In this document: one piece after another, positions 1-15,303 of the stretch
Layout of the letters: the number at the start of each line of letters is the position of its first letter
Numbering within the stretch: the first letter of the stretch is position 1
Notes under the pieces: model-generated
What the model saw: the letters and a program-made list of their open reading frames with translations, nothing else
The model's database searches: none
Told to the model about the DNA's origin: nothing
Origin: a virus
Taxonomy: Duplodnaviria > Heunggongvirae > Uroviricota > Caudoviricetes
DNA: 48,566 bases
IMG/VR virus record: IMGVR_UViG_2636415673_000004
Location: 1-48,566 of that record
Strand: one strand, 5' to 3'
Position numbers and translations under genes: made by a program

Positions 1-234
1 ATGAAATCAAAAGACACCCTAAAGTGGTTCCCTGCGCAGCTTCCTGAAGTAAGAATTATCCTAGGGGATGCTGTAGTGGAAGTAGCAAAACAGGGAAGAC
101 CTATCAATACCAGAACATTGCTTGATTACATTGAAGGAAACATAAAGAAAAAATCATGGCTGGATAACAAAGAATTATTACAAACAGCGATATCAGTTCT
201 TAAAGACAACCAAAATTTAAATGGTAAAATGTAA
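1..234 (+). CDS. ydfK: YdfK/YnaE-like prophage cold-shock protein (77 aa)
   Basis: ORF-track protein MKSKDTLKWFPAQLPEV... matches my recollection of the 77-aa Qin/Rac YdfK/YnaE; ATG at position 1. Confidence 0.6.
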   Translation: MKSKDTLKWFPAQLPEVRIILGDAVVEVAKQGRPINTRTLLDYIEGNIKKKSWLDNKELLQTAISVLKDNQNLNGKM

Positions 235-550
235 TATAATAAACTTACTTTTTTATCATTTTTCCACTTTAACAACATTTTGCTCCACTTTTCCACGACC
301 AAACAACTTGAAATCTGGTTAAAATAACACGCAACACTATTCTTCTTCCTTGAGTCCTCCCGGAACTCGAAAAACAAACCGAGTTAAAGCCATTTTTCAC
401 AAAATCGATTTTGGGTCTCACCAAAATTACGGGGTTGCATACGCATTCGTTTATTTTCGAACGTGTACATACAAATATGCACAAAAATAATCATAATTAT
501 TTTCTGAGATGCATTATGATATGAACACCAATTTCGTATAGAGTCTCACT

Positions 551-1141
551 ATGTCTCGAATTTTTGCTTACTGTCGGATATCAACGCTGGATCAGACCAC
601 CGAAAATCAACGCCGGGAAATCGAAAGTGCAGGTTTTAACATCAAATCTCAGCAAATAATCGAAGAACACATTAGCGGCTCAGCAGCAACCAGTGAGCGT
701 CCTGGTTTTAACCGGTTGCTTGCTCGCCTGAAATGTGGTGATCAATTGATTGTGACAAAACTGGATCGCCTTGGTTGTAATGCAATGGATATCAGGAAAA
801 CAGTGGAACAACTGACCGAAACAGGTATCAGAGTGCATTGCTTAGCATTGGGGGGCATTGACCTGACCAGTCCAACAGGAAAAATGATGATGCAAGTAAT
901 TTCAGCAGTCGCTGAATTTGAACGAGACCTTTTACTTGAACGCACTCATTCCGGGATAGTAAGAGCCCGCGGCGCAGGGAAACGTTTTGGTCGACCACCT
1001 GTGTTAAATGAAGAACAGAAACAGGTGGTATTCGAACGAATTAAGTCAGGTGTAAGTATAAGTGCCATTGCCCGGGAATTCAAAACCTCGCGGCAAACCA
1101 TTTTAAGAGCCAAAGCAAAACTTCAGACACCTGACATATAA
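551..1141 (+). CDS. pinQ: Serine recombinase, Pin/Gin/Hin-family DNA invertase (196 aa)
   Basis: N-terminal catalytic motif [10 protein letters not shown] and C-terminal HTH; same length as PinQ/PinR; lies next to tail-fibre genes. Confidence 0.9.
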
Positions 1142-1368
1142 AAAATAATCTCGGTGTGAGATGCTTTACGTCTTCCAAGCCCCCTTCCTTGCCGTAAATG
1201 GAAAGATACATCTAATTATAGAATTTATATGTTTTACCCTACGGCAGTGCTGGCCATTCAATATCCTGTGCAGTTGACGTATCAACACGGTTCAGCAATA
1301 CCCGATACTTTTTCCATGCTTCCAGCAATGAGATTTCTTCCTCCGTTGCATATACAGCTCACCTTTTT

Positions 1369-1662
1369 TCACCCACGATTAACCAACAGCCAGACCAGCA
1401 GACACGCCACCACCGGCACAGCAAAATCTATCAGGCTTGCCACATCCCAAACACGCGGATCAAAACCGCCCCACCACGGCATGTTAATCCGCTTGCAATG
1501 CCCGAACATTTCAATCCAGCGATATTCTGCCTGGGTGTGTTCCCGCGCAATGAAGAATGTACAACCGGCTATCGCCCCGTAAGCCCAGTTTCCGGTAAAA
1601 AGACCAACCAGTACCTGCGCAGCCACAGCACAAAGCGCATGAAGAAAAGGTGTTATATCCAT
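1369..1662 (-). CDS. Small hydrophobic (probable inner-membrane) protein; start uncertain (1662, 1668 or 1692)
   Basis: ORF with hydrophobic segments directly downstream of the S74 fibre gene; AGGA lies 5 nt before the ATG at 1662. Confidence 0.4.
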   Translation of the reverse strand: MDITPFLHALCAVAAQVLVGLFTGNWAYGAIAGCTFFIAREHTQAEYRWIEMFGHCKRINMPWWGGFDPRVWDVASLIDFAVPVVACLLVWLLVNRG

Positions 1663-1703
1663 TTTCATCCTACCCAATAAAACGGGGCGCATAGCCCTTA
1701 ATA

Positions 1704-2744
1704 TTATTTAGACGCAAGCGTCGCCTCAATTGCAGATAATCTTTGCCTTAATTCTGCGTTTTCTTCTTCCAGTACTGTTATTCTGTCGTCTGACTCTCTG
1801 GCTACCTGAACAAGCAAGCCAGTAACACCAGAATAATCTACTGTGTAATAACGTTCACCTTCTTCACCTTCCGATCCGCTTGCACCGTCCTGATATTTCA
1901 TTGCGGAACCGACAACTTCTGGGATTGCTTCCAGAGCTTCCTGTGCAATGACACCTGCATAGGGCATACCGTTTTCTTTAAGCGTGTATGTATAGCCGTT
2001 CATTTTACGGATGCGGTCGGTTGCATTATCGATCACCTGAATGTTGTCTTTCAGATCCCGGTCGGAATGCTGGTTAAATGCGGTGGCATGACATGCACCA
2101 TTAACGCTTAACATATAGGTGTTATCGGTATTTTTCTGCGCATAGAACATATACGCGCCACCATCAGCACCAACTTCATATACAACCGGACGGGTAGAGT
2201 TACCCCACAAACTAGTAGTAGCGCCAGAATGAGCGGTCCCCTGTGTGTTTAATGTCATGGTTGACCCATGATTGGCATATTTGATTTGTAATGTGTCTGT
2301 GCAGTCAAACTTAATAAGCGCGTTACTTCCCCGCACACCATACGACATGAGACAGTTCCCCATCTTAAGGTAACCATCACTGCCTGGAAAAATTAATGTT
2401 CCGCCGTAAAGATCGCTAAAATCCCAAAAGATACCTTTTGTTCCATTGTGTGTGACAATCCTTGTCATTGTATCTTTTGTACCGTCAATATTTTTTCTGG
2501 TGTACATCTCACTATAAGCGTTTTCGGTTTCTCCTGTCTTATTTGACAAGTGAATCTTACCGCTAAATATAGTTCCAGTGGTCGGCAATGCCTTTTGATC
2601 ATAGATTACATTGCAATAACTATTCCATGTTGTTTTATTGTCTACATATGATTTTGTTGCATAGCTTCCTTGATCAGTTTTTAGTTTACTAACATCGGAT
2701 TTTAGCGTTTTGATGTCATCAGGAATTACTGTTTTTGTAACCAT
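1704..2744 (-). CDS. Tail fibre/tail spike-like protein with C-terminal intramolecular-chaperone (peptidase S74) domain (346 aa)
   Basis: C-terminal DLKDNIQ...GYTYT...AGVIAQE...YYTVDYSGVTGLL block followed by a coiled-coil tail is typical of self-cleaving fibre chaperone domains; GGAG RBS 7 nt upstream. Confidence 0.6.
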   Translation of the reverse strand: MVTKTVIPDDIKTLKSDVSKLKTDQGSYATKSYVDNKTTWNSYCNVIYDQKALPTTGTIFSGKIHLSNKTGETENAYSEMYTRKNIDGTKDTMTRIVTHNGTKGIFWDFSDLYGGTLIFPGSDGYLKMGNCLMSYGVRGSNALIKFDCTDTLQIKYANHGSTMTLNTQGTAHSGATTSLWGNSTRPVVYEVGADGGAYMFYAQKNTDNTYMLSVNGACHATAFNQHSDRDLKDNIQVIDNATDRIRKMNGYTYTLKENGMPYAGVIAQEALEAIPEVVGSAMKYQDGASGSEGEEGERYYTVDYSGVTGLLVQVARESDDRITVLEEENAELRQRLSAIEATLASK

Positions 2745-2756
2745 TGTCTTACTCCA

Positions 2757-3026
2757 TTAAGCCCATGTCCTTACATGCTGATCTGTCGTAATGAAAGGCA
2801 TTAAAGAAGATATGTTTTTACTGCTATCAACAATCCTCATGTTTACGAAAAAACCACCGCGATCAATGCCTGTACATCTTTCGTTTTCTGGCTCCTCGTA
2901 ATCGATAATGCAGCCAATAACATCAACAAGAACCCCGTTTTCTTCTTCAAGACTGAACAGGCCACTGTCATATACAATTGCGTTAAACTGTTCTCTGTTA
3001 TCGAATCGTAATGTTATATCTCGCAT
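2757..3026 (-). CDS. Hypothetical protein (89 aa), translationally coupled to stf; possible fibre accessory/assembly factor
   Basis: ATG overlaps the stf stop as TAATG; no recognisable domain. Confidence 0.4.
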   Translation of the reverse strand: MRDITLRFDNREQFNAIVYDSGLFSLEEENGVLVDVIGCIIDYEEPENERCTGIDRGGFFVNMRIVDSSKNISSLMPFITTDQHVRTWA

Positions 3027-5383
3027 TATACGTATTCCTTAAGCTGCGTATCTGACAATGCTCTGTTCCAGAAACGGAGGTTTTTTATATGACCATTAAG
3101 GTGTCGTAATCCTGTCGTCGTTTGCCCCCCGATACGAATCACGGCTGCTTCACGAATATATTTCCATACTGTTTTTGTTTCAGCGCTTATATGCTTATTT
3201 GCAAATGAGCATGTCATGCCGTCAGCCTTAACCCTGAATCCCATAACGAGATCCCTTACTCCGCATGATTCATATACACGTCGGTTAGCCCCGCCTATAT
3301 CGCAATACGAATAACCGTCCTGACTGATAGTTCCAGAAGAACCAAACCCCATAATAAATGGGCCTCCGGACTGGTGATTTTCTGAATCAATGACACGCGG
3401 TGCAGCATTATGAGAAATAAACCAGTTTTTATGGACTTCCACCATGAACGTAAAAGGCATGGTATACATATTTTTCATCAGCGGAAATTTACATAAATCT
3501 GATGCACGAGTCGCTGGCTCTGTTGTCGTTATGATGAAGGAAGTTGCACAAGCACCATACTCGAATTGCGGGGTGGTTACTTCTATCCAGTCACCTGTTG
3601 CAAAAGCTCCCACAGCTCTGTCGGCTGCAATTTGCAGCTGCGTACCAACCATTCCCCATTCTGGCAGACATTTCAGTGTTGCCTGAAAATATATCCATCC
3701 ACTACCAGGGTCGATTTCAAAGTTTGCTGTTAATAGCTGGGCATTGCCACCAGTAATTTGTAGTTCATGGGTCTGTAATGACAAATAGGCGTCGCAAAGG
3801 AAGGTGTATCCTTCCGAGTTATACCGTTCAAAACGGATACGTGCGCGAACATTGAGATCACTTCTTACCCTGAACGACGCGGTAACATACGGACCTTTAC
3901 TGTACTGATCATCGCCAGTCACATCTATGCCTTTGTTACCAGCAACTGTGCATATATTTCTCCCTGTTGTCGTTCCTGCTATATCGCTTCCTACCGTGAA
4001 ACGTCCATATTTAAACTCAAATTCATCTGTTGATGATGTTACAGATATACCACCGCTTTTATTCCACGCATCAGGATTAAAACTATTTACGAACATGTTT
4101 GTTCGCTGATTCTCTATCAGCAAACCATATTTTTCAAAACGAGGAACGTTATTACCTGCCACGGTAATATGCCCGGACTTATCAATATACGTTGCAGATG
4201 AAGCCCGGCTAAATTGGCATATGCCATTAACTGGCACAGTGATTTCATCGCTGCCGATGGTTATTGTTTTATACCCCGGCGCATACCCTGTTATCGCTTC
4301 CAGAGAATCATTCAAGGGTAGCCAGATATCAGGAAGCGGAGGGACAGAAGCAGGATCAGCGGCATCTTCTGCAATCCGGGCTGCATTCTCTGCTCTTGTT
4401 GCGGCTGACGTTGCTTCTGTCTCGCTGGCTGCTGCTTTTGTTTCGCTCGCCTTTGCGTTAGTTTCACTGGTTTTTGCAGCTTTTTGGCTATTAGCTGCCG
4501 CTGTTGCAGAACCAGCTGCAGCACTCTCGCTTTCGGCTGCTGCATCCTGACTGCTTTTCGCCGCAGTTTCGCTGGCTTTGGCATTCGTTTCGCTGGTCTT
4601 CGCTGCCGTCTGGCTGGACTTTGCGTTAGTTTCACTCGTCTTCGCAGCTTTCTGGCTGTTAGCCGCAGCAGTTGCTGATCCAGCTGCTGAAGTCGCAGAA
4701 CCGGCTGCCGCGCTCTCGCTTTGGGCTGCTGCAACCTGGCTGTTTTTTGCCGCAGTTTCACTGGCTTTGGCATTCGTTTCGCTGGTCTTCGCTGCCGTCT
4801 GGCTGGACTTTGCGTTGGTTTCGCTCGTCTTTGCGGCTGTCTCGCTGTTTTTCGCGTTGGTTTCTGATTTTTTGGCTGCTGTCGCGGAGTTTGCCGATGC
4901 AGTCTGTGAGGTCGCTGCCGCCTGTGCGCTGTTAGCTGCATTCGTTTCTGAGGTTTTCGCCGCGTTCTTCGATGATGCCGCTGCAGTTTCGGATTTCTTT
5001 GCCGCCGCTGCGCTCTGAGAGGCGGCTTCGGCGTTGCGTGCCGCTTCTTCCACCATTTCCTCAAAACGGCGCAATGCCTCCGGCATGACATCATCTTCCG
5101 TCATGGCACCGAGAAAATCATTCAGCGTACCTGGTCTGGAACCTTCATAGACGGTAATGGTCCCGGCATGTGAAGGCGGAAAACCTTCAACCAGCAGGGT
5201 GACGCTGTACTGGCCATACTCAACATCCATGCTGTAACGCCCGGCTTCATCAGGATTTTCAGAGGCCACCGTGTTCACCAGTACCGTGGTGCTGTTACGC
5301 TTTGCCTTCAGTTGAATAGTGCAGTTCTGTATTGGTTTTCCCGCACCATCTTTCAGCACACCTGAGATTTTTACTGCTGCCAT
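3026..5383 (-). CDS. stf: Side tail fibre protein Stf (about 785 aa) with lambda-Stf-like N-terminus, Ala/Ser/Thr tandem repeats and LamG-like C-terminal domain
   Basis: N-terminus MAAVKISGVLKDG... resembles lambda Stf; repeated KTSETNAK units; C-terminus ends in a ...NLRFWNRALSDTQL motif. ATG at 5383 preferred over GTG at 5389. Confidence 0.8.
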   Translation of the reverse strand: MAAVKISGVLKDGAGKPIQNCTIQLKAKRNSTTVLVNTVASENPDEAGRYSMDVEYGQYSVTLLVEGFPPSHAGTITVYEGSRPGTLNDFLGAMTEDDVMPEALRRFEEMVEEAARNAEAASQSAAAAKKSETAAASSKNAAKTSETNAANSAQAAATSQTASANSATAAKKSETNAKNSETAAKTSETNAKSSQTAAKTSETNAKASETAAKNSQVAAAQSESAAAGSATSAAGSATAAANSQKAAKTSETNAKSSQTAAKTSETNAKASETAAKSSQDAAAESESAAAGSATAAANSQKAAKTSETNAKASETKAAASETEATSAATRAENAARIAEDAADPASVPPLPDIWLPLNDSLEAITGYAPGYKTITIGSDEITVPVNGICQFSRASSATYIDKSGHITVAGNNVPRFEKYGLLIENQRTNMFVNSFNPDAWNKSGGISVTSSTDEFEFKYGRFTVGSDIAGTTTGRNICTVAGNKGIDVTGDDQYSKGPYVTASFRVRSDLNVRARIRFERYNSEGYTFLCDAYLSLQTHELQITGGNAQLLTANFEIDPGSGWIYFQATLKCLPEWGMVGTQLQIAADRAVGAFATGDWIEVTTPQFEYGACATSFIITTTEPATRASDLCKFPLMKNMYTMPFTFMVEVHKNWFISHNAAPRVIDSENHQSGGPFIMGFGSSGTISQDGYSYCDIGGANRRVYESCGVRDLVMGFRVKADGMTCSFANKHISAETKTVWKYIREAAVIRIGGQTTTGLRHLNGHIKNLRFWNRALSDTQLKEYV
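4420..4935. repeat. In-frame tandem DNA repeats (about 189-bp period) inside stf
   Basis: The block ccgcagtttc(g/a)ctggctttggcattcgtttcgctggtcttcgctgccgtctggctggactttgcgtt occurs at about 4561 and 4750, with degenerate copies upstream. Confidence 0.7.
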
Positions 5384-5394
5384 ATCCACTCCAC

Positions 5395-5421
5395 AAAAAA
5401 GCCCGCCTGAACCGGCGGGCT
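5395..5421 (-). terminator. Rho-independent terminator downstream of lom
   Basis: Minus-strand AGCCCGCC-GGTTCA-GGCGGGCT followed by TTTTTT. Confidence 0.7.
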
Positions 5422-5447
5422 GTCATAACACTGTGTTACCTGGCTAA

Positions 5448-6047
5448 TCAGAATTTATAACCGACACCCACGATGAAACCGTCAGTGCGCCAGTCACCAC
5501 TGCCGGAACCTTCATAAGCAAGGTCAATGGCCACGGATTCGGTCGGGTTAAACTGCACGCCAGCTCCCCACGCCAGAGACGTGTTGCTGTGGCGACCGTC
5601 ATCACTTCCGGTCAGCACATCGTGCGTTTTCCCCTTGTTGTCAGTTACGCGGAGATAATCCCCGGAGAAAGTCGACACACGGCTGTAAGCCATACCCGCC
5701 ATCGCATACGCGCTGAACCATTCATTCACGCGTACAGACGGCCCCGCCATCACGCTGAACCAGCGGTTACGCACGGAATCTTCATGCCAGCGGGTATCGC
5801 TGTAACGGGTAAGCTGGCGATTCTTGTCTCCTGCATAGCTGAATGACGTCACCAGCCCCAGTGTGTCCGTAAACTCATAACGGTATTTCACGTTAATCCC
5901 GTTAAGATCATCGCTGCCGGGAACGTTCGTCGAGGCATGAAGATACCCCGCGCTCAGCGTGGACTGATGTTCAGATGCCCATGCAGGCGCACCGGATACG
6001 GCCAGACAAATGGCTGCGGACAAAATGGCGGCATAAAGTTTACGCAT
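5448..6047 (-). CDS. lom: Lom outer-membrane protein (Ail/Lom family), 199 aa
   Basis: Signal peptide [24 protein letters not shown] plus beta-barrel-like sequence ending GVGYKF; conserved position after J. Confidence 0.85.
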
Positions 6048-6113: not shown

Positions 6114-9100
6114 TCAGCTGATACTGATGCCTGCGGTGGCTTTCTTCATCACCACAACCAGCAAATCGCTGATACTTGCTGTGGGATACCAGTCATTTAC
6201 CAGCCATGCTGACACCGAAAACTCCAGCGTCATGTGACCGTGACCGGCAGGCATATCAATAACGCCACTGTAAATCAGCGTATTATCCAGCGCGGTACGG
6301 TTATAAATTTCAGCACCGTTTTTCCGCACTATCAGACGGCATGAGGAGTAAATATCAGTATGCTCTCTCTCATGTTTAGCGCCGCTGAATGCCACCGCCG
6401 GAATAACAATCTGCCGGTCAAACGGCTGATCGTCATAAACCCTGACGGTAATGGTCCCTGATGGCCACCGTTCCGGTGCACGGGAGTCCCGGGGGAAAGC
6501 TTTGCCCACTGTTTTAACGAGATCGCCTTCAATCTGGTTCGCGGACAGTTTTCCCAGAACCCGACAGTTCTCGTTAATCGTGACGTTGTTGAGCGTCCCG
6601 GAGTTCGCATTCACGTTACCGCTGATATCGGCATTTTTCGCCGTCAGCCGCCCATCCGGTGTCAGGGAAAATGCCGGTGGATTTCCACCACTGGTAATGG
6701 TGGGGGCCGTCAGGCGTTTCAGGAACACGTCGTTCATGAATATCTGATTGCCCTGCGCCACAAACATCGGCGTTTCATTCCCGTTTGCCGGGTCAATAAA
6801 CGCGATACGGTTAGCGGCAACCAGAAACTGGCTCAGTTTGCCTTCCTCCGTGTCCTCCATACTGAGGCCAATACCCGCGACATAATGTTTGCCGTCTTTG
6901 GTCTGCTCAATTTTGACAGCCCACATGGCATTCCATTTATCGTTGGCATCCTTCCACTCTTTCGAAAACTCATCCAGTCTGCTGGCGTTATCCTCCGTCA
7001 GATCGACTTTTTCCAGCAGCTCCTTGCCGAGATGGGATTCGGTTATCTTGCCTTTGAAAAAATCCAGGTAACCTTCCGCATCATCGCTCGCCCGACCGAC
7101 GGACTCCACGAATGCCGATTTGCCAACGGTGTTCACACTGCGGATATAAAAGTAATAATCATGGCCCGGTTTGATATTGATACTGGCGGCTATCCAGTAC
7201 AGCCCCGTGCCAAGGTAGCGGGCTGTGGTTTCAACCTGCCTGATATCGGTAATCCGCGTTTCCGAGAACCAGAACTCAAACTGTACCGTCGGATCATAAA
7301 CCGCAAGATGCGGCGTGGCGGTGATCTGAAAATAGCCCGGCGTCAGCTCAATCCTCGACGGTGCTGCCGGTGCGGCAATCCGGAACGATACCGACGCCGG
7401 ATCGCCCTGCTGCCCCCACGCATTTACCGCCCGGACTGTCAGCCTGTAGTTCCCCAGCGCCAGCTGCGTGAAGCGGTATGTGGTTTCCGCCGTCCGGGCC
7501 GTGCTGACCAGCCGCTCACTGCCGTCATCCGCTGCCACGGTCAGGCGAAGCATAAAGCTCACCCCCTTCACCACCTTCGGCGTATCCCAGCGTGCCAGCA
7601 CCTGATACTCCCCGCTGTCTGCGGTGACTTCGGCAGTCAGGTGCTGCACCGCTGGCGGCGTGACACCATTCACCGTGCCGCTCTGGTCGCCGTCAAAGTG
7701 CGCCCCGTTATCCACGATGGCTTCTTTTTCCGGTACATGCTGCACGGCGGTGATGGCATACGTGCCGTCGTCGTTCTCACGGATACTCACGCAGCGGAAC
7801 AGGCGCTGGCGCAGCGTCGGCAGCTTCAGCCCCCATACGCTGTATTCAGCAACGCCGTCAGGAACACGGCTCACTTTCACCTTCACGCCGTCGGTGACGG
7901 ACTGGACCTCCACGCTGACCGGATTGCCACTTCCGTCAACCAGGCTTATCAGCGTGGTACCGGAGGATGGCAGCGTGATTTCACGGTCGAGCGTCAGCGT
8001 CCGGGTCTGGCTGTTCACAGCCAGCACGCGCCCGCCGATGCTGATCCCCGCATAGTCATCATCGCAGATTTCAATAACATCCCCCGGCACATGGCGAAGC
8101 CCTTCGGCACCCACGCTGAAATCCACGGTCTGCGTCTCCAGCAGCTCCGTTTTAATCAGCCACAGCCCGGCGCGGTGTGCCTGCCCCCGACTGGTACAGC
8201 CAAAGGCATCCATCTTCGTGACGTTACGACCGTAACGGGCAATGGCCTGCGTGTCCTCCACAAGCTCTGTCGCCGTCTCCCAGCCGTTATCCGGGTCAAT
8301 CCAGTTCACCTCAACGGCATTATGACGGTCCTTCAGGGCGCTGAAGCTGTAGCGGAACGGCGCGCCATCATCCGGCATCACCACATTACTGCGGTTATAG
8401 GTCCACACCTTATCCGATGGCCGGTCCTGCACGAACGTCAGCGTCTGCCCGTTCCATACCGGCATACAGCGCATCGCCGAGCAGAAATCACTGAGCACAT
8501 CCCACGCCTTGCGCTGTGTGGTCAGGTACGCATTACAGGCGATGCGCGGCTCCGTGCCGCCAAAGCCGTCCGGCACCGACTGGTCGCAGTACTGGCCGAT
8601 GACATACAGCGCCCATTTATCCACATCCGCCGCACCAAGACGTTTCCCCATGCCGTAGCGCGGATGGATCAGCATATCCCACAGACACCAGGCCATGTTG
8701 TTGCTGTATGCCGGTTTTAACGTTCCGTCCCAGATACCGCTGTATTGTCGCGTCTGCGGGTTATAGTTCGACGGCACCTGCAGAATGCGCCCGCGCAGAT
8801 GATAATTACGACTCACCTGCTGACTGCCGAACTGCTCCGAGTCCACCTGTACGCCAACCAGTGCCGTGTTCGGGTAGCACTGTTTCACATCGATGATTTC
8901 GGTGTATGACGACCAGAGCGTTTTGTTCTGCAGCTGGTCTGTGGTGCTGTCCGGCGTCATCCTGCGCATCCGGATATTAAACGGGCGCGGCGGCAGGCTA
9001 CCCACCACCACCGAGGCCAGATACTGCGAGGTGGTTTTGCCCTTAATGGTGATGTCTTTTTCCGTCACCCAGCCACCGTTACGTTGTATCTGAACCAGCA

Positions 9101-9509
9101 GGCGGACTTCCGACGGATTCCTGTCACCCTTTGAGGTGGTTTCCACCAGTGCCTGCACGCCGAAAGTAAAGCGCAGACGGTCGATGTTTGCCGACGTGAT
9201 GGTGCGGGTGATCGGCATGTCATATTTCACTTCCATACCCAGCACCGTCTCGGAGCCGGAGGATTCAAACCCCTCCGGCGGAGTCTGCTCCTGCTCACCT
9301 GCCCGGAACACCACCGTGACACCGGAGATGTTGGTATTCCCCTCAGTGTCCAGCACCGGCGTACTGTTCAGCAGCACGCTTTTTAATCCATCCACCGGAC
9401 CTTCAACCGGCCCTTCGCTGATGGCATCGATCACACTCAGCAACTGCGTGGACTTCAGGTTGTCCTTCGCTTCGCGCGGGGTATGCCCCTTACTGCTTCC
9501 TTTACCCAT
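6114..9509 (-). CDS. J: Tail tip/host-specificity protein J (1131 aa)
   Basis: Matches lambda gpJ over most of its length as recalled ([21 protein letters not shown]...); C-terminal about 150 aa look divergent. Confidence 0.95.
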
Positions 9510-11585: not shown

Positions 11586-11914
11586 CAGTTCACCACCTGT
11601 TTAAACTCTGCGCTGAACTCAACACGCAACATACTGACCTGCGACGACCATTTTGCGCAGGTCACCTTTATCTGCCTGTAACCATAAGGCGGCGTCCACA
11701 GAAAGGCCTTCCAGCCCCCGTGCTCAGCCAGAAACGACTCCAGCGCCGTGGCCTCCTCACGGGAGACATACAGCGTCACGCTGTACGTTTTCAGGTCAGC
11801 GTTCAGCCCGGCAGGCGCACGCTGGGAATAGCCATCACCAAAGCGCACCTCCCTGACGGAAGGAGCCGATGTCACATCCATCCCGGGTTTCACTTTCCAG
11901 CGGAAGGTTTTCAT
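11585..11914 (-). CDS. M: Tail tip protein M (109 aa)
   Basis: MKTFRWKVKPGMDVTSAP... matches lambda gpM as recalled. Confidence 0.95.
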   Translation of the reverse strand: MKTFRWKVKPGMDVTSAPSVREVRFGDGYSQRAPAGLNADLKTYSVTLYVSREEATALESFLAEHGGWKAFLWTPPYGYRQIKVTCAKWSSQVSMLRVEFSAEFKQVVN

Positions 11915-14472
11915 CGTCCACCTCCGGAGAACAGACCACCATCGCGCATCTGTGCCTGGATTTCATCACGGGCACCCTTGCGGGCCATGTCATACACCGC
12001 CTTCATCATCTGTGGACCTGGCAGACCATTCGTACCGTCGTTCTGAATCACCACGTTGTTGTTCTGCTCAAACCTGATACCCTCTGAACGCCGCATTTGC
12101 GCCGGACTTCCGGTGCCACCGACATAACCGCCGGTGGCATAGCCGCGCATCAGCCGGTAGAGATTTCCCACGCCAATCCGGCTGGTTGCCTCCTTCGTGA
12201 AGACAAATTCACCACGGTGAACAATCCCCGCTGGCTCATATTTGCCGCCGGTTCCCGTAAATCCTCCGGTTGCAAAATGGAGTTTCGCCGCAGCGGCCTG
12301 AATGGCTGTACCGCCTGACACTGATGCGCCACCACCGGCAGCACCGCCAATGACGCTGCCGATACTCCCGACAATCCCCACCATTGCCTGCTTAAGCAGA
12401 ATTTCTGTCATCATGGACAGCACGGAACGGGTGAAGCTGCGCCAGTTCTGCTCACTGCCGGTCAGCATCGCCGCCATATTCTGTGCAATTCCATCAAAGG
12501 TCTGCGTGGCTGCACTTTTTACCTGCGACATACTGTCCGTGGCGCTCTCTTCCCACTCACTCCAGCCGGACTTCAGGCCTGCCATCCAGTTCCCGCGAAG
12601 CTGGTCTTCAGCCGCCCAGGTCTTTTTCTGCTCTGACATGACGTTATTCAGCGCCAGCGGATTATCGCCATACTCCTCCTTCAGGCGCTGTTCCGTGGCT
12701 TCCTTCGCTGCCTGCCGGTCAGTCAGCCCCCGGCTTTTCGCATCAATGGCGGCCCGTTTTGCCCGTTGCTGCTGTGCGAATTTATCCGCCTGCTGCGCCA
12801 GCGCGTTCAGGTGCTCCTGATACGTGACCTTATCGCCAAGTGCAGCCAGCTGGCGTTTGTACTCCAGCGTCTCATCTTTATGCGCCAGCAGGGATTTCTC
12901 CTGTGCGGACAGCTGGCGACGTTGCGCCGCCTCCTCCAGTACCGCGAACTGACTTTCCGCCTTCCACAAATCCCGGCGCTGCTGGCTGATTTTCTCATTC
13001 GCTCCGGCATGCTTCTCCAGTGTCCGGAGTTCTGCCTGAAGCGTCAGCAGGGCAGCATGAGCACTGTCTTCCTGACGATCGCCCGCAGACACTTTCACGC
13101 CGGACTGCTTCGGCTTTTTCAGCGTCGCTTCATAGTCCTTTTTCGCCGCCGACATCAGCGTGTTGTAATCTGCCTGCAGGATTTTTCCGTCTTTCAGTGC
13201 CTTATTCAGTTCCTCCTGGCGGGCGGTATATTTCTCCAGCGGTGTCTGCAGGCGTTCGTAAGCCTTCTGCGCCTCTTCGGTATATTTCAGCCGTGACGCT
13301 TCGGTATCGCTCTGCTGCTGCGCATTTTTGTCCTGTTGACTCTGCTGTTCAGCCTTCTTTCGGGCGGCTTCAAGCGCAAGACGGGCCTTTTCACGATCAT
13401 CCCAGTAACGCGCCCGCGCTTCATCGTTAACGAAATAATCATCCTTGCGCAGATTCCAGATGTCGTCTGCTTTCTTAAACGCAGCCTCTGCCTTAATCAG
13501 CATCTCCTGAGCGGTATCAGGACGACCAATATCCAGCACCGCATCCCACATGGATTTGAATGCCCGTGCTATCCTGTCTGCCCAGGTTTCCAGCGTGCCC
13601 ATGTTCTCTTTCAGGCGGCGGGTCTGGTCATCAAACCCTTTCGTTGCGGCCTCGTTCGCTGCCTGCAATGCCCCGGCCTCATCGCCGGAACGCTGCAACT
13701 GAGCAACATACGCAATTTGCTCCGCCGTCACGTTATGGAACTGGCGCGCCATCGCCGTCAGCCCCGACGTCGGGTCAGTGGTCAGCTTCCCGAAGGCTTC
13801 AGCGACCTTGTCCACCTCCACGCCGGATGCAGAGGAGAAACGCGCCACACTCTGGCTGATGGACGCAATCTGAGCCTCACCGCTTACCCCCGCCTTAACC
13901 AGTGCGCTGAGTGACTCGCTGGTCTGGTTAAACGTCAGCCCTGCCGCCTGCCCGGCTCTGGACAGGACCAGCATACGATCTGCCGTCAGACCCGACTGAT
14001 TACCGGAAAGGACCAGCGTTTTGTTGAAATCGGACAGGGTTGAGTTACCCTGATACCAGGCATACGCCAGCGCACCGGTCGCCACCGCCAGCGAGGTGGC
14101 CCCGACCATCGGCAGGGTGATCGCACCGGCAAGCCCCCGGAACATGGGGATCATCCCGCCGAAGGAGTCCTTAACCTGACCACCCTGTTGCAGCAGGATC
14201 AGCCACGGACTTTGCCCGCCTGCAAGCTGCGTGGCCACGTCGGTGAACTGCGCAGGCAGCATACGCATGGCAGCTTTATACTGCCCGACGGAAATCCCCG
14301 CTTTCTGTGCAGCCAGCGCCTGCCGGTTCATCGACTGTTCAACGACTGCCGCTGTTTTTTTCGCATCAGTTTCCGTACCGGAAAAATGACGCCTGACTCT
14401 GGCCATCTGCTCGTCAAATCTGGCCGCATCCAGACTTAAATCAACGACCAGATCGCCTACTGGTTCAGCCAT
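11911..14472 (-). CDS. H: Tail tape-measure protein H (853 aa)
   Basis: Same length as lambda gpH; coiled-coil rich; conserved position. Confidence 0.95.
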   Translation of the reverse strand: MAEPVGDLVVDLSLDAARFDEQMARVRRHFSGTETDAKKTAAVVEQSMNRQALAAQKAGISVGQYKAAMRMLPAQFTDVATQLAGGQSPWLILLQQGGQVKDSFGGMIPMFRGLAGAITLPMVGATSLAVATGALAYAWYQGNSTLSDFNKTLVLSGNQSGLTADRMLVLSRAGQAAGLTFNQTSESLSALVKAGVSGEAQIASISQSVARFSSASGVEVDKVAEAFGKLTTDPTSGLTAMARQFHNVTAEQIAYVAQLQRSGDEAGALQAANEAATKGFDDQTRRLKENMGTLETWADRIARAFKSMWDAVLDIGRPDTAQEMLIKAEAAFKKADDIWNLRKDDYFVNDEARARYWDDREKARLALEAARKKAEQQSQQDKNAQQQSDTEASRLKYTEEAQKAYERLQTPLEKYTARQEELNKALKDGKILQADYNTLMSAAKKDYEATLKKPKQSGVKVSAGDRQEDSAHAALLTLQAELRTLEKHAGANEKISQQRRDLWKAESQFAVLEEAAQRRQLSAQEKSLLAHKDETLEYKRQLAALGDKVTYQEHLNALAQQADKFAQQQRAKRAAIDAKSRGLTDRQAAKEATEQRLKEEYGDNPLALNNVMSEQKKTWAAEDQLRGNWMAGLKSGWSEWEESATDSMSQVKSAATQTFDGIAQNMAAMLTGSEQNWRSFTRSVLSMMTEILLKQAMVGIVGSIGSVIGGAAGGGASVSGGTAIQAAAAKLHFATGGFTGTGGKYEPAGIVHRGEFVFTKEATSRIGVGNLYRLMRGYATGGYVGGTGSPAQMRRSEGIRFEQNNNVVIQNDGTNGLPGPQMMKAVYDMARKGARDEIQAQMRDGGLFSGGGR

Positions 14473-15303
14473 ACCGGACTCCTCCTGCGATCCCTTCTGA
14501 TACTGTCATCAGCATTACGTCATCCTCCGTCATGTCCGCCACATCCGGGGAAGCGGGGATAACTTTATTCCCGTCCGGACCAAAGCGGACGCCTCCGGCA
14601 AGCCCTGCCGCTTTCTGCATCAGCACATCATCTTCAGGCTCTTCGTCAGCCTCACACCGATTCAGCAGACTGAAATCCAGCGGATGCATCTCCGGATCGC
14701 TGAAAAACAGGCTGAGCACGGTGTACGTCAGCCCGGAAAAGTGCATATCCAGCAGAACATCATGAAAATAATGGGTACTGTAAAAACGGTGCCAGTCGGC
14801 ATACTCCGTGGATGACATCCCGGCAAGCATGGCGCGCCAGTCGGGTCGCCCCATCTCACGCGCCAGTTTCAGGGCAAAACTCAGCTCACCGTCGAACACT
14901 TTCCCGCAGAAACAGGCTCTGCAGGCCCGGCGTCCTCTGCCTGTTCAGGGGCATTATTCACCACAAACTCAGACATTCCGGACAGACGTAACACCACGTT
15001 TTCAGCCTGAGCAATTGCCTCCGTGGGCCAGGTGGTAAGCACTTCCTGCTCAATCTGCGTAATGGCTTCATTCATGGACAGCAGCTTTGTCTTCTGCGGA
15101 TGGTTATGCCACAGAGACATCGCCACCAGAAACGCCCCGCCTCTGATAAGATCCTCTACAGACACCTGCAGGTTGCCACTGGATTCAGCCTTTTTTTCCT
15201 GCTCTTTCAACCAGGCAAGATGCTCAATACGCTGCAGGGCTGACAGTTCAGAAAGCGTGACGGTCACGCCGTTATATTCAAATGATTCGGTTTTCAGGAA
15301 CAT
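14465..15303 (-). CDS. T: G-T fusion made by programmed -1 ribosomal frameshift (gpT portion 14465..14905)
   Basis: The -1 frame is open from the slippery site to 14465 and encodes gpT-like sequence (V)FDGELSFALKLAREMGRPDW.... Confidence 0.85.
14881..15303 (-). CDS. G: Tail assembly chaperone G (140 aa)
   Basis: MFLKTESFEYNGVTVTLSELSALQRIEHLAWLK... matches lambda gpG as recalled. Confidence 0.9.
   Translation of the reverse strand: MFLKTESFEYNGVTVTLSELSALQRIEHLAWLKEQEKKAESSGNLQVSVEDLIRGGAFLVAMSLWHNHPQKTKLLSMNEAITQIEQEVLTTWPTEAIAQAENVVLRLSGMSEFVVNNAPEQAEDAGPAEPVSAGKCSTVS
14899..14905 (-). other. Slippery heptamer GGGAAAG for the G to G-T -1 frameshift
   Basis: Plus-strand ctttccc at 14899-14905 is GGGAAAG on the minus strand, in G frame as G GGA AAG just before the G stop. 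Confidence 0.85.

Follow-up and report, generated by a model that had tools for sequence, protein, structure and literature searches.

The side tail fibre of the lambda-like prophage in the window (the whole 48,566-nt stretch of DNA analysed here) is probably composite, with the stf product as its proximal subunit, for which we infer roles in glycan binding and in docking of a second fibre protein. Its C-terminal module is always accompanied by a ~90-aa gene and usually by a short fibre gene, so that the apparent fibre tip would most likely be a lectin-like knee, able both to bind glycan and to dock a distal receptor-binding fibre. The original prediction had described a side tail fibre with a lambda-like N-terminus, an expandable repeat shaft and a LamG-like tip. 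The observation was confirmed, but its interpretation was borne out only in part: the module probably does not make up the distal tip by itself, since it comes with an obligate ~90-aa partner and, in the window, with a second fibre gene of 346 aa whose N-terminal peptide is conserved. Fibres of this design are known from other coliphages, and the window provides a lambdoid case; this architecture has been proposed for a T5-like phage, and current concepts are unchanged.

The first step of host recognition is set by side tail fibres. These fibres have been re-engineered in lambda-based DNA delivery vehicles (PMC11338833), and the two-part reading shows engineers and annotators where natural exchange points would lie. 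The features that count here are the lectin-like knee, the small partner dedicated to it and a distal fibre that can be swapped. If the fibre has two parts, ‘hypothetical’ genes downstream of stf are therefore probably virion components.

The stf gene and its lambda-type setting

The stf gene occupies 3026–5389 on the minus strand and encodes 787 aa from a GTG at 5389; the interval given originally, 3026–5383, is the RefSeq version of 785 aa that starts from the ATG at 5383 (WP_021533785.1). The protein is 100% identical in E. coli A33 and 13 other complete genomes, its allele is present as an E. coli prophage gene in 131 of 5426 complete genomes, and a match to phrog_1419 spans it from end to end. 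The N-terminal tail-attachment domain (aa 5–134; 4988–5377, minus strand) matches PF08400 (phage_tail_N, E = 7e-67), aa 5–97 align with the solved lambda tail-fibre chain 9e7m/9mgh in a PDB sequence search (E = 7e-49) and aa 5–275 are 61% identical to lambda orf-401. These matches agree with the lambda-like N-terminus noted before, and aa 5–134 are the domain by which lambda Stf is anchored to the tail tip. The position of the gene is also that of a lambda-type Stf, downstream of J (6114–9509) and lom (5448–6047) on the same strand. Ur-lambda Stf thus shares with the window protein its first ~275 aa, its Ala/Ser heptad shaft and its location after J and lom.

The distal parts differ. Among the features that define a lambda-type Stf, PF08400 and the location after J and lom are present, whereas a gp37-like tip with a cognate Tfa gene is absent. 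No similarity of the Stf C-terminus to the gp37-like tip orf-314 was found on alignment to lambda, in line with the earlier view that the two tips are unlike, and it is plausible that the putative receptor of the window Stf is other than that of lambda. In place of the orf-314 tip and of an intact Tfa, the window has the module, a small ORF and a distal fibre gene. What is left of the lambda-type tfa is a remnant comprising the last 36 codons and the stop (1239–1349, minus strand), which is 89% identical to lambda Tfa aa 156–191; RefSeq annotates a partial tail fiber assembly pseudogene at the corresponding place in strain A33. Judged from this similarity, the remnant stems from the displaced original tip module. 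A Hin/Gin-type recombinase gene at 551–1141 looks like an orphan beside it. An invertible tail-fibre segment of the Mu G, P1 C or e14 P type was considered and rejected, as neither credible inverted repeats that could act as crossover sites nor opposite-strand fibre ORFs were found in 1–5500.

The C-terminal module and the two genes that follow it

The last ~435 aa of Stf (~351–787) are predicted to form two concanavalin-A/LamG-type beta-sandwiches. This module opens with the junction motif PLPDIWLP (aa 351–358; 4316–4339, minus strand), as it does in all host fibre types, and the motif is found in nearly all of the ~120 homologues screened, irrespective of their N-terminus. Beta-sandwich 1 (aa 424–629; 3503–4120, minus strand) is matched by the NCBIfam model NF048003, GTA_spike_fiber, with 47.9 bits (cut-off 36) and is all-beta with pLDDT >90 in the AF2 model. 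Beta-sandwich 2 (aa ~630–787; 3029–3502, minus strand) is Laminin_G_3/LamG-like and ends, as had been quoted, with NLRFWNRALSDTQLKEYV; PF13385 (Laminin_G_3) matches aa 746–783 of the window protein with 20.2 bits (E = 7e-4), under the gathering score of 27.6, and matches 34 of 43 module homologues with a best E of 2.1e-10. The AF2 model of the whole module is all-beta and confident (pLDDT 90.9, pTM 0.87). Foldseek searches with the individual domains returned laminin LG, neurexin LNS, CBM40, BoNT Hc-N and pentraxin, while the matches in BFVD include many viral proteins described as ‘ConA-like lectin’ or ‘LamG-like jellyroll’. The concanavalin/LamG-like fold suspected from the C-terminal motif is thus supported by family and structural matches, in the form of a confidently predicted double sandwich. 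The top PDB fold matches are 9b45_1 of Pa193 (503 aa) and 8env_K of E217; the sheath protein gp32 and the wedge protein gp46 of Pa193 are both ~504 aa, and as the chain may be either, no inference is drawn from these two matches.

The module was found in 218 phage records, those of T1-, 9g- and rV5-like phages among them, and is carried on lambda-type (PF08400), P2-type (PF12571 and PF03406) and T5 pb1-type N-termini with ~30–55% identity between phage lineages; from its PLPDIW start onwards it is mobile across fibre types. Carbohydrate binding by the module is suggested by its predicted fold and by distant homology. The head spike fibre of RcGTA (Rcc01080) is a relative of beta-sandwich 1, which scores above the NF048003 cut-off, and cell binding through that fibre rises with capsule (PMC10218006). 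In each case a lectin-like beta protein of two domains sits where an appendage ends; however, the RcGTA protein stands on the head by itself, attached through 10 N-terminal residues, whereas the window domain is fused to a tail-fibre shaft.

The gene that follows, at 2757–3026 on the minus strand, encodes 89 aa (phrog_1361), and its ATG overlaps the stf stop codon (TAATG). In every locus that is long enough, a homologous ~90-aa ORF begins at offset 0 or −3 relative to the fibre stop, and such a gene follows the module in every lineage examined (lambda-, T1-, T5-, 9g-, P2- and rV5-like). An alignment-based search with the 89-aa protein recovered 354 clusters, all of them ‘hypothetical’, and a single-sequence search only four fragments. 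Its AF2 model is of moderate confidence (pLDDT 66.8) and gave no significant fold match in the PDB, the best being generic ferredoxin-like proteins at E = 0.07. The protein is a putative partner of the module, either as an adaptor or as a chaperone.

Gene 3 (1704–2744, minus strand) encodes the distal fibre of 346 aa, which consists of an N-terminal peptide, MVTKTVIPDDIKTLKSD, a body that is the predicted receptor-binding part, and a C-terminal S74 intramolecular chaperone (Peptidase_S74, PF13884, E = 6.2e-14, aa 227–278 of 346; also phrog_4563). No tail-attachment domain was recognisable in it with Pfam or phrog. The first ~16 residues, MVTKTVIPxDIxxLK, are conserved, and a short fibre gene is usually present after the module and the ~90-aa gene. 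In the form M[VA]T[KSV]T[VT]IPxDIxxLK the peptide is kept in lambda-, P2-, T5- and T1-like contexts with differing bodies, and this N-terminus is common to gp24 of IrisVonRoten, PeterMerian and P2-like and T5-like genes. In the reciprocal test, every one of the 29 IMG/VR genes starting with MVTKTVIPxDI had the module and the small ORF immediately upstream. Residues 1–5 of gene 3 covary with the module variant, which could reflect either linkage, with a breakpoint at the start of gene 3, or co-evolution of an interface. The C-terminal half of gene 3 recurs elsewhere as the terminal part of one-piece fibres, e.g. in mEp460, where it is fused directly to Stf, which marks gene 3 as a genuine tip. 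Gene 3 is missing in phage 21, in the rV5-like FFH2 and in the prophage loci L065, L069 and L072, where module and small ORF close the fibre, which shows that the module can serve as a terminal domain by itself.

Gene 3 has 346 aa in PhiR11_1-type phages, with 90% identity in PhiR11_1, and is represented by a 227-aa variant in PhiR55_1; in strain A33 it is disrupted by IS66. Nothing specific was found in the literature on LamG tail fibres in prophages or on the ECOR PhiR phages.

A proposed composite fibre and its alternatives

In the composite fibre that we propose, the trimer would end in three lectin-like modules that bind surface polysaccharide (O-antigen or capsule) and, together with the ~90-aa protein, form a knee at which the distal fibre docks via its conserved N-terminal peptide. 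The distal fibre would mature by S74 autocleavage and supply a second, easily swapped receptor specificity. A more tentative extension, to which we give a little under an even chance, is that the ConA-like double domain, the ~90-aa partner and the 16-residue peptide of gene 3 constitute a universal plug-and-socket joint, the socket itself being a lectin, so that the fibre is of dual specificity and its distal part is swappable. Such a joint may be common to lambda-, T1-, T5-, 9g- and P2-like phages and possibly rV5-like ones, and recombination at the conserved PLPDIW and MVTKTVIP junctions may let siphoviruses and myoviruses exchange distal receptor-binding fibres. If this is so, lambda-based delivery particles could be re-targeted with the 16-residue peptide as a portable tag.

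The lateral fibre of the T5-like phage IrisVonRoten (Bas32) has the same three-gene order, gp22-gp23-gp24. Its gp22 carries the same module (~433 aa) after PLPDVW, and a near-identical homologue from KS_S14 is ~51% identical to the window module; gp23 (92 aa) is a homologue of the 89-aa ORF; and gp24 begins with MVTKTVIPTDITKLK and, like gene 3, has an S74-type chaperone at its end. In the published model gp24 is attached to the proximal gp22, and the ‘galectin-like domain’ of gp22 is possibly an extra receptor-binding domain (Humolli et al. 2025, PMC11990801). The hallmarks of this fibre type, a ~435-aa module initiated by PLPDxW, an overlapping gp23 homologue and a gene start of the form M[VA]TxT[VT]IPxDIxxLK, are all present in the window. 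The two fibres differ in their anchors, which are of T5 pb1/LtfC type in IrisVonRoten and of lambda Stf type in the window, in the distal fibre, which has 574 aa and two receptor-binding domains in the former and 346 aa in the latter, and in their shaft repeats, which are unlike. LtfA/LtfB of DT57C and gp34-35-36-37 of T4 are likewise multi-subunit fibres in which a proximal subunit carries the distal receptor-binding protein. The joint of the window fibre is a ConA-like double domain with a ~90-aa protein, whereas T4 uses a knee of the gp35/gp36 type, the only link between them being a weak fold match. The PDB sequence search covered one L-shaped tail fibre chain of the T5-like kind, 8hqz_d, and gave no match of it to the window module.

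The published placement of the IrisVonRoten distal fibre on the proximal one (PMC11990801) is one of several observations that make a one-piece Stf, in which the LamG-like module forms the tip and binds the receptor, its folding chaperone is all that the 89-aa protein is, and the 346-aa fibre is an independent appendage or an unused leftover, an unlikely account. Gene 3 has no recognisable domain with which to attach to the tail by itself, its N-terminal peptide is conserved in four phage lineages, and in IMG/VR all genes with this start (29/29) are directly preceded by the module and the small ORF. A one-piece fibre would nevertheless fit phage 21, FFH2 and the L065-type prophages, which do without gene 3, as well as the lectin-like fold with its capsule-binding GTA relative and the break of gene 3 by IS66 in strain A33. 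The phages that lack gene 3 bear on a further alternative as well, since they keep the module at the end of the fibre, where a knee or hub of purely structural function, comparable to T4 gp35/gp36 and leaving all specificity to the distal fibre, would not be expected. The diversity of the module between lineages is that expected for a host-contacting part and, together with its ConA-like/Laminin_G_3 and GTA spike-fibre homology, renders a purely structural role improbable, even though the viral fold matches include a T4 gp35-like ‘hinge connector’ (rank 41, TMq 0.38) and the top-ranking PDB chains, taken as baseplate, are from Pa193 and E217.

Shaft repeats and fibre length

Between the anchor and the module lie 33 uninterrupted heptads (aa ~115–345; 4355–5047, minus strand), in which position 2 is Ala in 32 of 33 and position 5 is Ser in 29 of 33. 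This continuous heptad periodicity with small core residues is that expected of a coiled-coil shaft, and aa 156–348 match 8hqz_d, an L-shaped tail fibre chain of the T5-like kind, in its coiled-coil part (E = 4.7e-6). We infer that the array forms a trimeric alpha-helical coiled coil. The predicted three-helix shaft resembles the proximal shaft of DT57C LtfA, an N-terminal homologue of the T5 fibre, which is a three-helix coiled coil from T40 by cryo-EM (PMC10713586).

Part of the shaft is a tandem repeat, detected by TRF at 4506–4849 (period 189, 1.8 copies, 90% matches). Registered to the protein, copy 1 (4649–4837, minus strand) has 189 nt and nine heptads (aa 185–247), copy 2 (4481–4648, minus strand) has 168 nt and eight heptads (aa 248–303), and a partial third copy adds two heptads (aa 304–317; 4439–4480, minus strand). 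The repeats are in frame with a period of 189, as had been claimed, but ‘near-identical’ overstates their likeness: copies 1 and 2 are 89.3% identical, with a longest exact run of 56 nt, and a 21-nt indel leaves one copy a heptad shorter. ORFs in alternative frames (e.g. 4312–5094 and 4578–5018) were discarded, since repetitive Ala/Ser codons give rise to such frames incidentally.

Shaft length does vary, because related fibres hold 0, 1, 2 or 3 copies of a 63-aa block, with shafts of 124, 187, 250 and 313 aa, respectively. The shaft is 237 aa in the window Stf and 244 aa in L008, and one close allele has a single extra heptad. The notion of an expandable shaft therefore holds, as repeat number differs across homologues rather than being invariant; at close range, however, it is constant. 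No change in repeat number was seen among the 60 best E. coli genome alleles (97.8–100% identity), all of which are exactly 2364 nt save one with an IS2 insertion, and gain and loss of repeats therefore look like evolutionary events rather than frequent switching. Shaft length is also the same in 26 of 27 window-type IMG/VR loci. This constancy of alleles and loci, together with the divergence of the copies (89% identity), which argues against frequent homogenising exchange, makes it very improbable that the repeat is a contingency locus altering fibre length at high frequency within populations, despite the tandem in-frame copies with their common exact run and the existence of 0–3-copy and extra-heptad variants. 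Unequal homologous recombination between copies of this similarity would shift fibre length in steps of 63 aa, and the clean series of 0, 1, 2 and 3 copies of a coiled-coil block would then be a tidy natural example of fibre-length evolution by this route.

The side tail fibre gene and its shaft

In the window, stf is a single minus-strand ORF (3026..5389, starting at a GTG, 787 aa), for which RefSeq places the start at the ATG at 5383 (785 aa, WP_021533785.1, 'prophage tail fiber N-terminal domain-containing protein'). The prophage is complete and lambda-like, with stf following J (6114-9509) and lom (5448-6047) in operon order. E. coli A33 and 13 further complete genomes have the gene with 100% DNA identity, and 80% or more of it occurs in 131 of the 5426 complete genomes of E. 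coli. The induced phages PhiR55_1, PhiR47_1 and PhiR11_1 encode a 'side tail fiber protein' to which it is 97-98% identical. IS2 lies inside stf itself in VTB96929v and ISEc8/IS66 interrupts the distal fibre gene of the A33 locus (11646-15136), so some lysogens keep inactivated copies of the system.

The N-terminus is lambda-like, as originally predicted. Residues 5-134 match PF08400 (E 7e-67), residues 5-97 are near-identical in alignment to the lambda tail-fibre chain (PDB 9e7m/9mgh), and the first 275 residues share 61% identity with lambda orf-401. The shaft that follows (approximately residues 115-345; 36% Ala, 17% Ser, 13% Thr) consists of 33 uninterrupted heptads, with Ala at position 2 in 32 and Ser at position 5 in 29 of them. 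It is likely to be trimeric and alpha-helical, because it matches 8hqz_d, a chain of a T5-like L-shaped tail fibre, in the coiled-coil region (E 4.7e-6) and because DT57C LtfA, the N-terminal homologue of the T5 fibre, was seen by cryo-EM to form a coiled coil of three helices (PMC10713586). Several long ORFs crossing the shaft out of frame or antisense to stf (4221-5094, both strands), such as an Arg/Gln-rich ORF of 260 aa at 4312-5094, were rejected as genes and are by-products of repetitive GC-rich Ala/Ser coding.

Tandem repeats in frame, with a period of 189 bp, had been noted here and are present (TRF: 1.8 copies, 90% matches), but 'near-identical' overstates their likeness. Copy 1 (4649-4837, minus strand; residues 185-247, 189 nt, nine heptads) and copy 2 (4481-4648, minus; residues 248-303, 168 nt, eight heptads) share 89.3% identity across 168 aligned nt and an exact run of 56 nt, with a single 21-nt indel between them, and a partial repeat (4439-4480, minus) adds two more heptads that repeat the start of the block. 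No change in copy number was found in the top 60 matches among genomes (identity 97.8-100%), all exactly 2364 nt except one carrying an IS2 insertion. The shaft is 237 aa in 26 of the 27 window-type IMG/VR loci; in L008 (IMGVR_UViG_2541047802_000012), where the C-terminal module is 100% identical to that of the window, it is 244 aa, with one additional heptad in repeat copy 2. Within the wider family that shares this lambda-type N-terminus, shaft lengths differ in exact steps of 63 aa, from 124 aa without a block copy (protein P0111) through 187 aa with one (protein P0114 and locus L071) and 250 aa with two (44 loci) to 313 aa with three full blocks (locus L034). Repeat number is thus not invariant among homologues, and the shaft has both grown and shrunk by whole blocks. 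Whole-block gain and loss are most simply explained by unequal homologous recombination; the length change is on an evolutionary timescale, without visible population polymorphism.

A mobile lectin-like double domain

The C-terminal ∼435 residues of Stf (the module) show no similarity to the gp37-like half of Ur-lambda Stf (orf-314), which bears out the predicted departure from the lambda tip, and they have no sequence match in the PDB. Residues 424-629 match NCBIfam NF048003 (GTA_spike_fiber) above the family cut-off. Residues 746-783, the very motif originally read as LamG-like, match Pfam Laminin_G_3 (ConA-like lectin/glucanase superfamily) under the gathering score (E 7e-4), and 34 of 43 module homologues match the same family (best 2e-10). 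An AF2 model of residues 340-787 built from these 43 homologues (pLDDT 90.9, pTM 0.87) is all-beta with two sandwich domains. Foldseek against the PDB returned ConA/LamG-type sandwiches (laminin LG, neurexin LNS, CBM40, BoNT Hc-N, pentraxin and adenovirus galectin head); against BFVD, the best matches were tail fibres of phages rolling, EdH4 and NBEco002 (TMq 0.88-0.93), followed by dozens of viral 'Concanavalin A-like lectin/glucanase' and 'LamG-like jellyroll' proteins. The model and the family matches support a LamG-like module at both fold and family level. The head spike fibre of RcGTA, which defines NF048003, is described as lectin-like and two-domain, and its cell binding increases with capsule (PMC10218006); this lends indirect support to polysaccharide binding by the module.

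The module is mobile. Always starting at a conserved PLPD[IV]W junction, it closes, at ∼30-55% identity, proteins with lambda-type (PF08400), P2 gpH-type (PF12571+PF03406) and T5 pb1-type N-termini, as well as fibres from phages of the T1-, 9g- and rV5-like groups. It is present in 218 phage records, and an exhaustive search yielded 2026 50%-identity clusters at E<=1e-3. Three 'Campylobacter phage' (MG065655, MG065652, MG065692) and two 'Listeria phage' (OR848352, OR849447) records have fibre modules of coliphage type (rV5-/T5-like), 44-95% identical, and are probably mislabelled or contaminated entries.

A probable composite fibre

An 89-aa ORF (2757-3026, minus) overlaps the stf stop with its start (TAATG). 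In every lineage checked, the gene next to the module is a homologue of ∼90 aa, at offset 0 or -3: in PhiR55_1, a P2-like prophage, the T5-like KS_S14 and IrisVonRoten, the T1-like PeterMerian, phage 21, the rV5-like FFH2 (110 aa) and about 75 IMG/VR loci (GTG start in three). The family comprises 354 clusters, every one annotated 'hypothetical' and none with a Pfam domain; the AF2 model of the 89-aa protein is of mediocre quality and gave no informative fold relative. We take the 89-aa protein to be an obligate partner of the double domain; it may act as structural adaptor or as chaperone.

Next there is usually a third gene. In the window, gene 3 (1704-2744, minus; 346 aa) starts twelve bases past the 89-aa ORF and ends in a Peptidase_S74 intramolecular chaperone. 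The N-terminus of gene-3 products reads M[VA]T[KSV]T[VT]IPxDIxxLK and the remaining sequence varies: besides the S74 form of the window, there are products of 227-234 aa (the 227- and 231-aa versions align to the S74 region of the window gene, with a similar motif), of 303-340 aa with a Gp34_trimer domain and then a Caudo_TAP chaperone gene, and the T-shaped 574-aa protein of IrisVonRoten. Reciprocally, all 29 IMG/VR genes starting MVTKTVIPxDI directly follow the small ORF and module. Gene 3 encodes a genuine receptor-binding tip, as its C-terminal half forms the end of one-piece fibres in other phages, e.g. mEp460 Stf.

IrisVonRoten (Bas32) has exactly the same layout, with bas32_0022 (796 aa, with the module), bas32_0023 (92 aa) and bas32_0024 (574 aa), the last starting MVTKTVIPTDITKLK. 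According to Humolli et al. 2025, its T-shaped gp24 attaches to the proximal fibre. Maffei et al. 2021 (PMC8594841) noted that two or more proteins may make up the lateral fibres of small siphoviruses, and that in the distal subunits conservation is limited to the far N-terminus, 'where these are likely attached'. Taken with these published models, the layout makes the window a lambdoid member of an architecture that predictions had already suggested for T5- and T1-like phages; Stf itself is already annotated, common and part of a described design.

We consider it reasonably probable that Stf is the proximal subunit of a composite fibre with a separately encoded distal fibre. Stf would supply an anchor, a length-variable coiled coil and the lectin-like double domain, and the 346-aa protein would most likely dock through its conserved N-terminal peptide and bring a second specificity. 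However, phage 21, FFH2 and prophages of the L065 type keep the module and small ORF without gene 3, which argues against a pure hub role and obligate docking, and the co-variation of the first gene-3 residues with the module variant may be linkage alone. That the module is the sole tip of the fibre, as its original description as a tip implied, is nonetheless rather unlikely, and probably wrong for this prophage, where a separate distal fibre gene follows. A purely structural knee and fast length switching are, even jointly, the least probable readings. The original observation is confirmed, and most of its interpretation holds for the fold, the divergence from lambda and the plasticity of the repeat; the neighbouring genes on which the composite-fibre reading depends were beyond what it could see.

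History of the locus

Beyond the fibre genes lie the last 36 codons of a lambda-type tfa (1239-1349, minus), 89% identical to lambda Tfa residues 156-191 and with no tfa sequence upstream, which we take as the scar of a fibre-tip module that the present cassette displaced. A Hin/Gin/Pin-type serine recombinase (551-1141, plus; Resolvase and HTH_7) adjoins the fibre cluster, with no inverted crossover sites or alternative fibre segments detectable nearby, and looks like an orphan invertase. Together, the remnant and the lone recombinase point to the displacement of an ancestral stf-tip/tfa cassette, which may have been invertible. The replacement would have comprised the module, small ORF, distal fibre and a membrane-protein gene. 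The last encodes a hydrophobic protein (1369-1692, minus; phrog_1443, 97-107 aa), which many lambdoid loci keep immediately behind their fibre genes and whose phage 21 counterpart bears the annotation of a putative membrane protein (2 TMDs); the gene may serve in lysogenic conversion or exclusion. Phage 21 (L087, 5508-8332) also carries the sitABCD iron/manganese transporter operon directly after its fibre cluster, a cargo (moron) region in the same position as the distal-fibre and recombinase region of the window.
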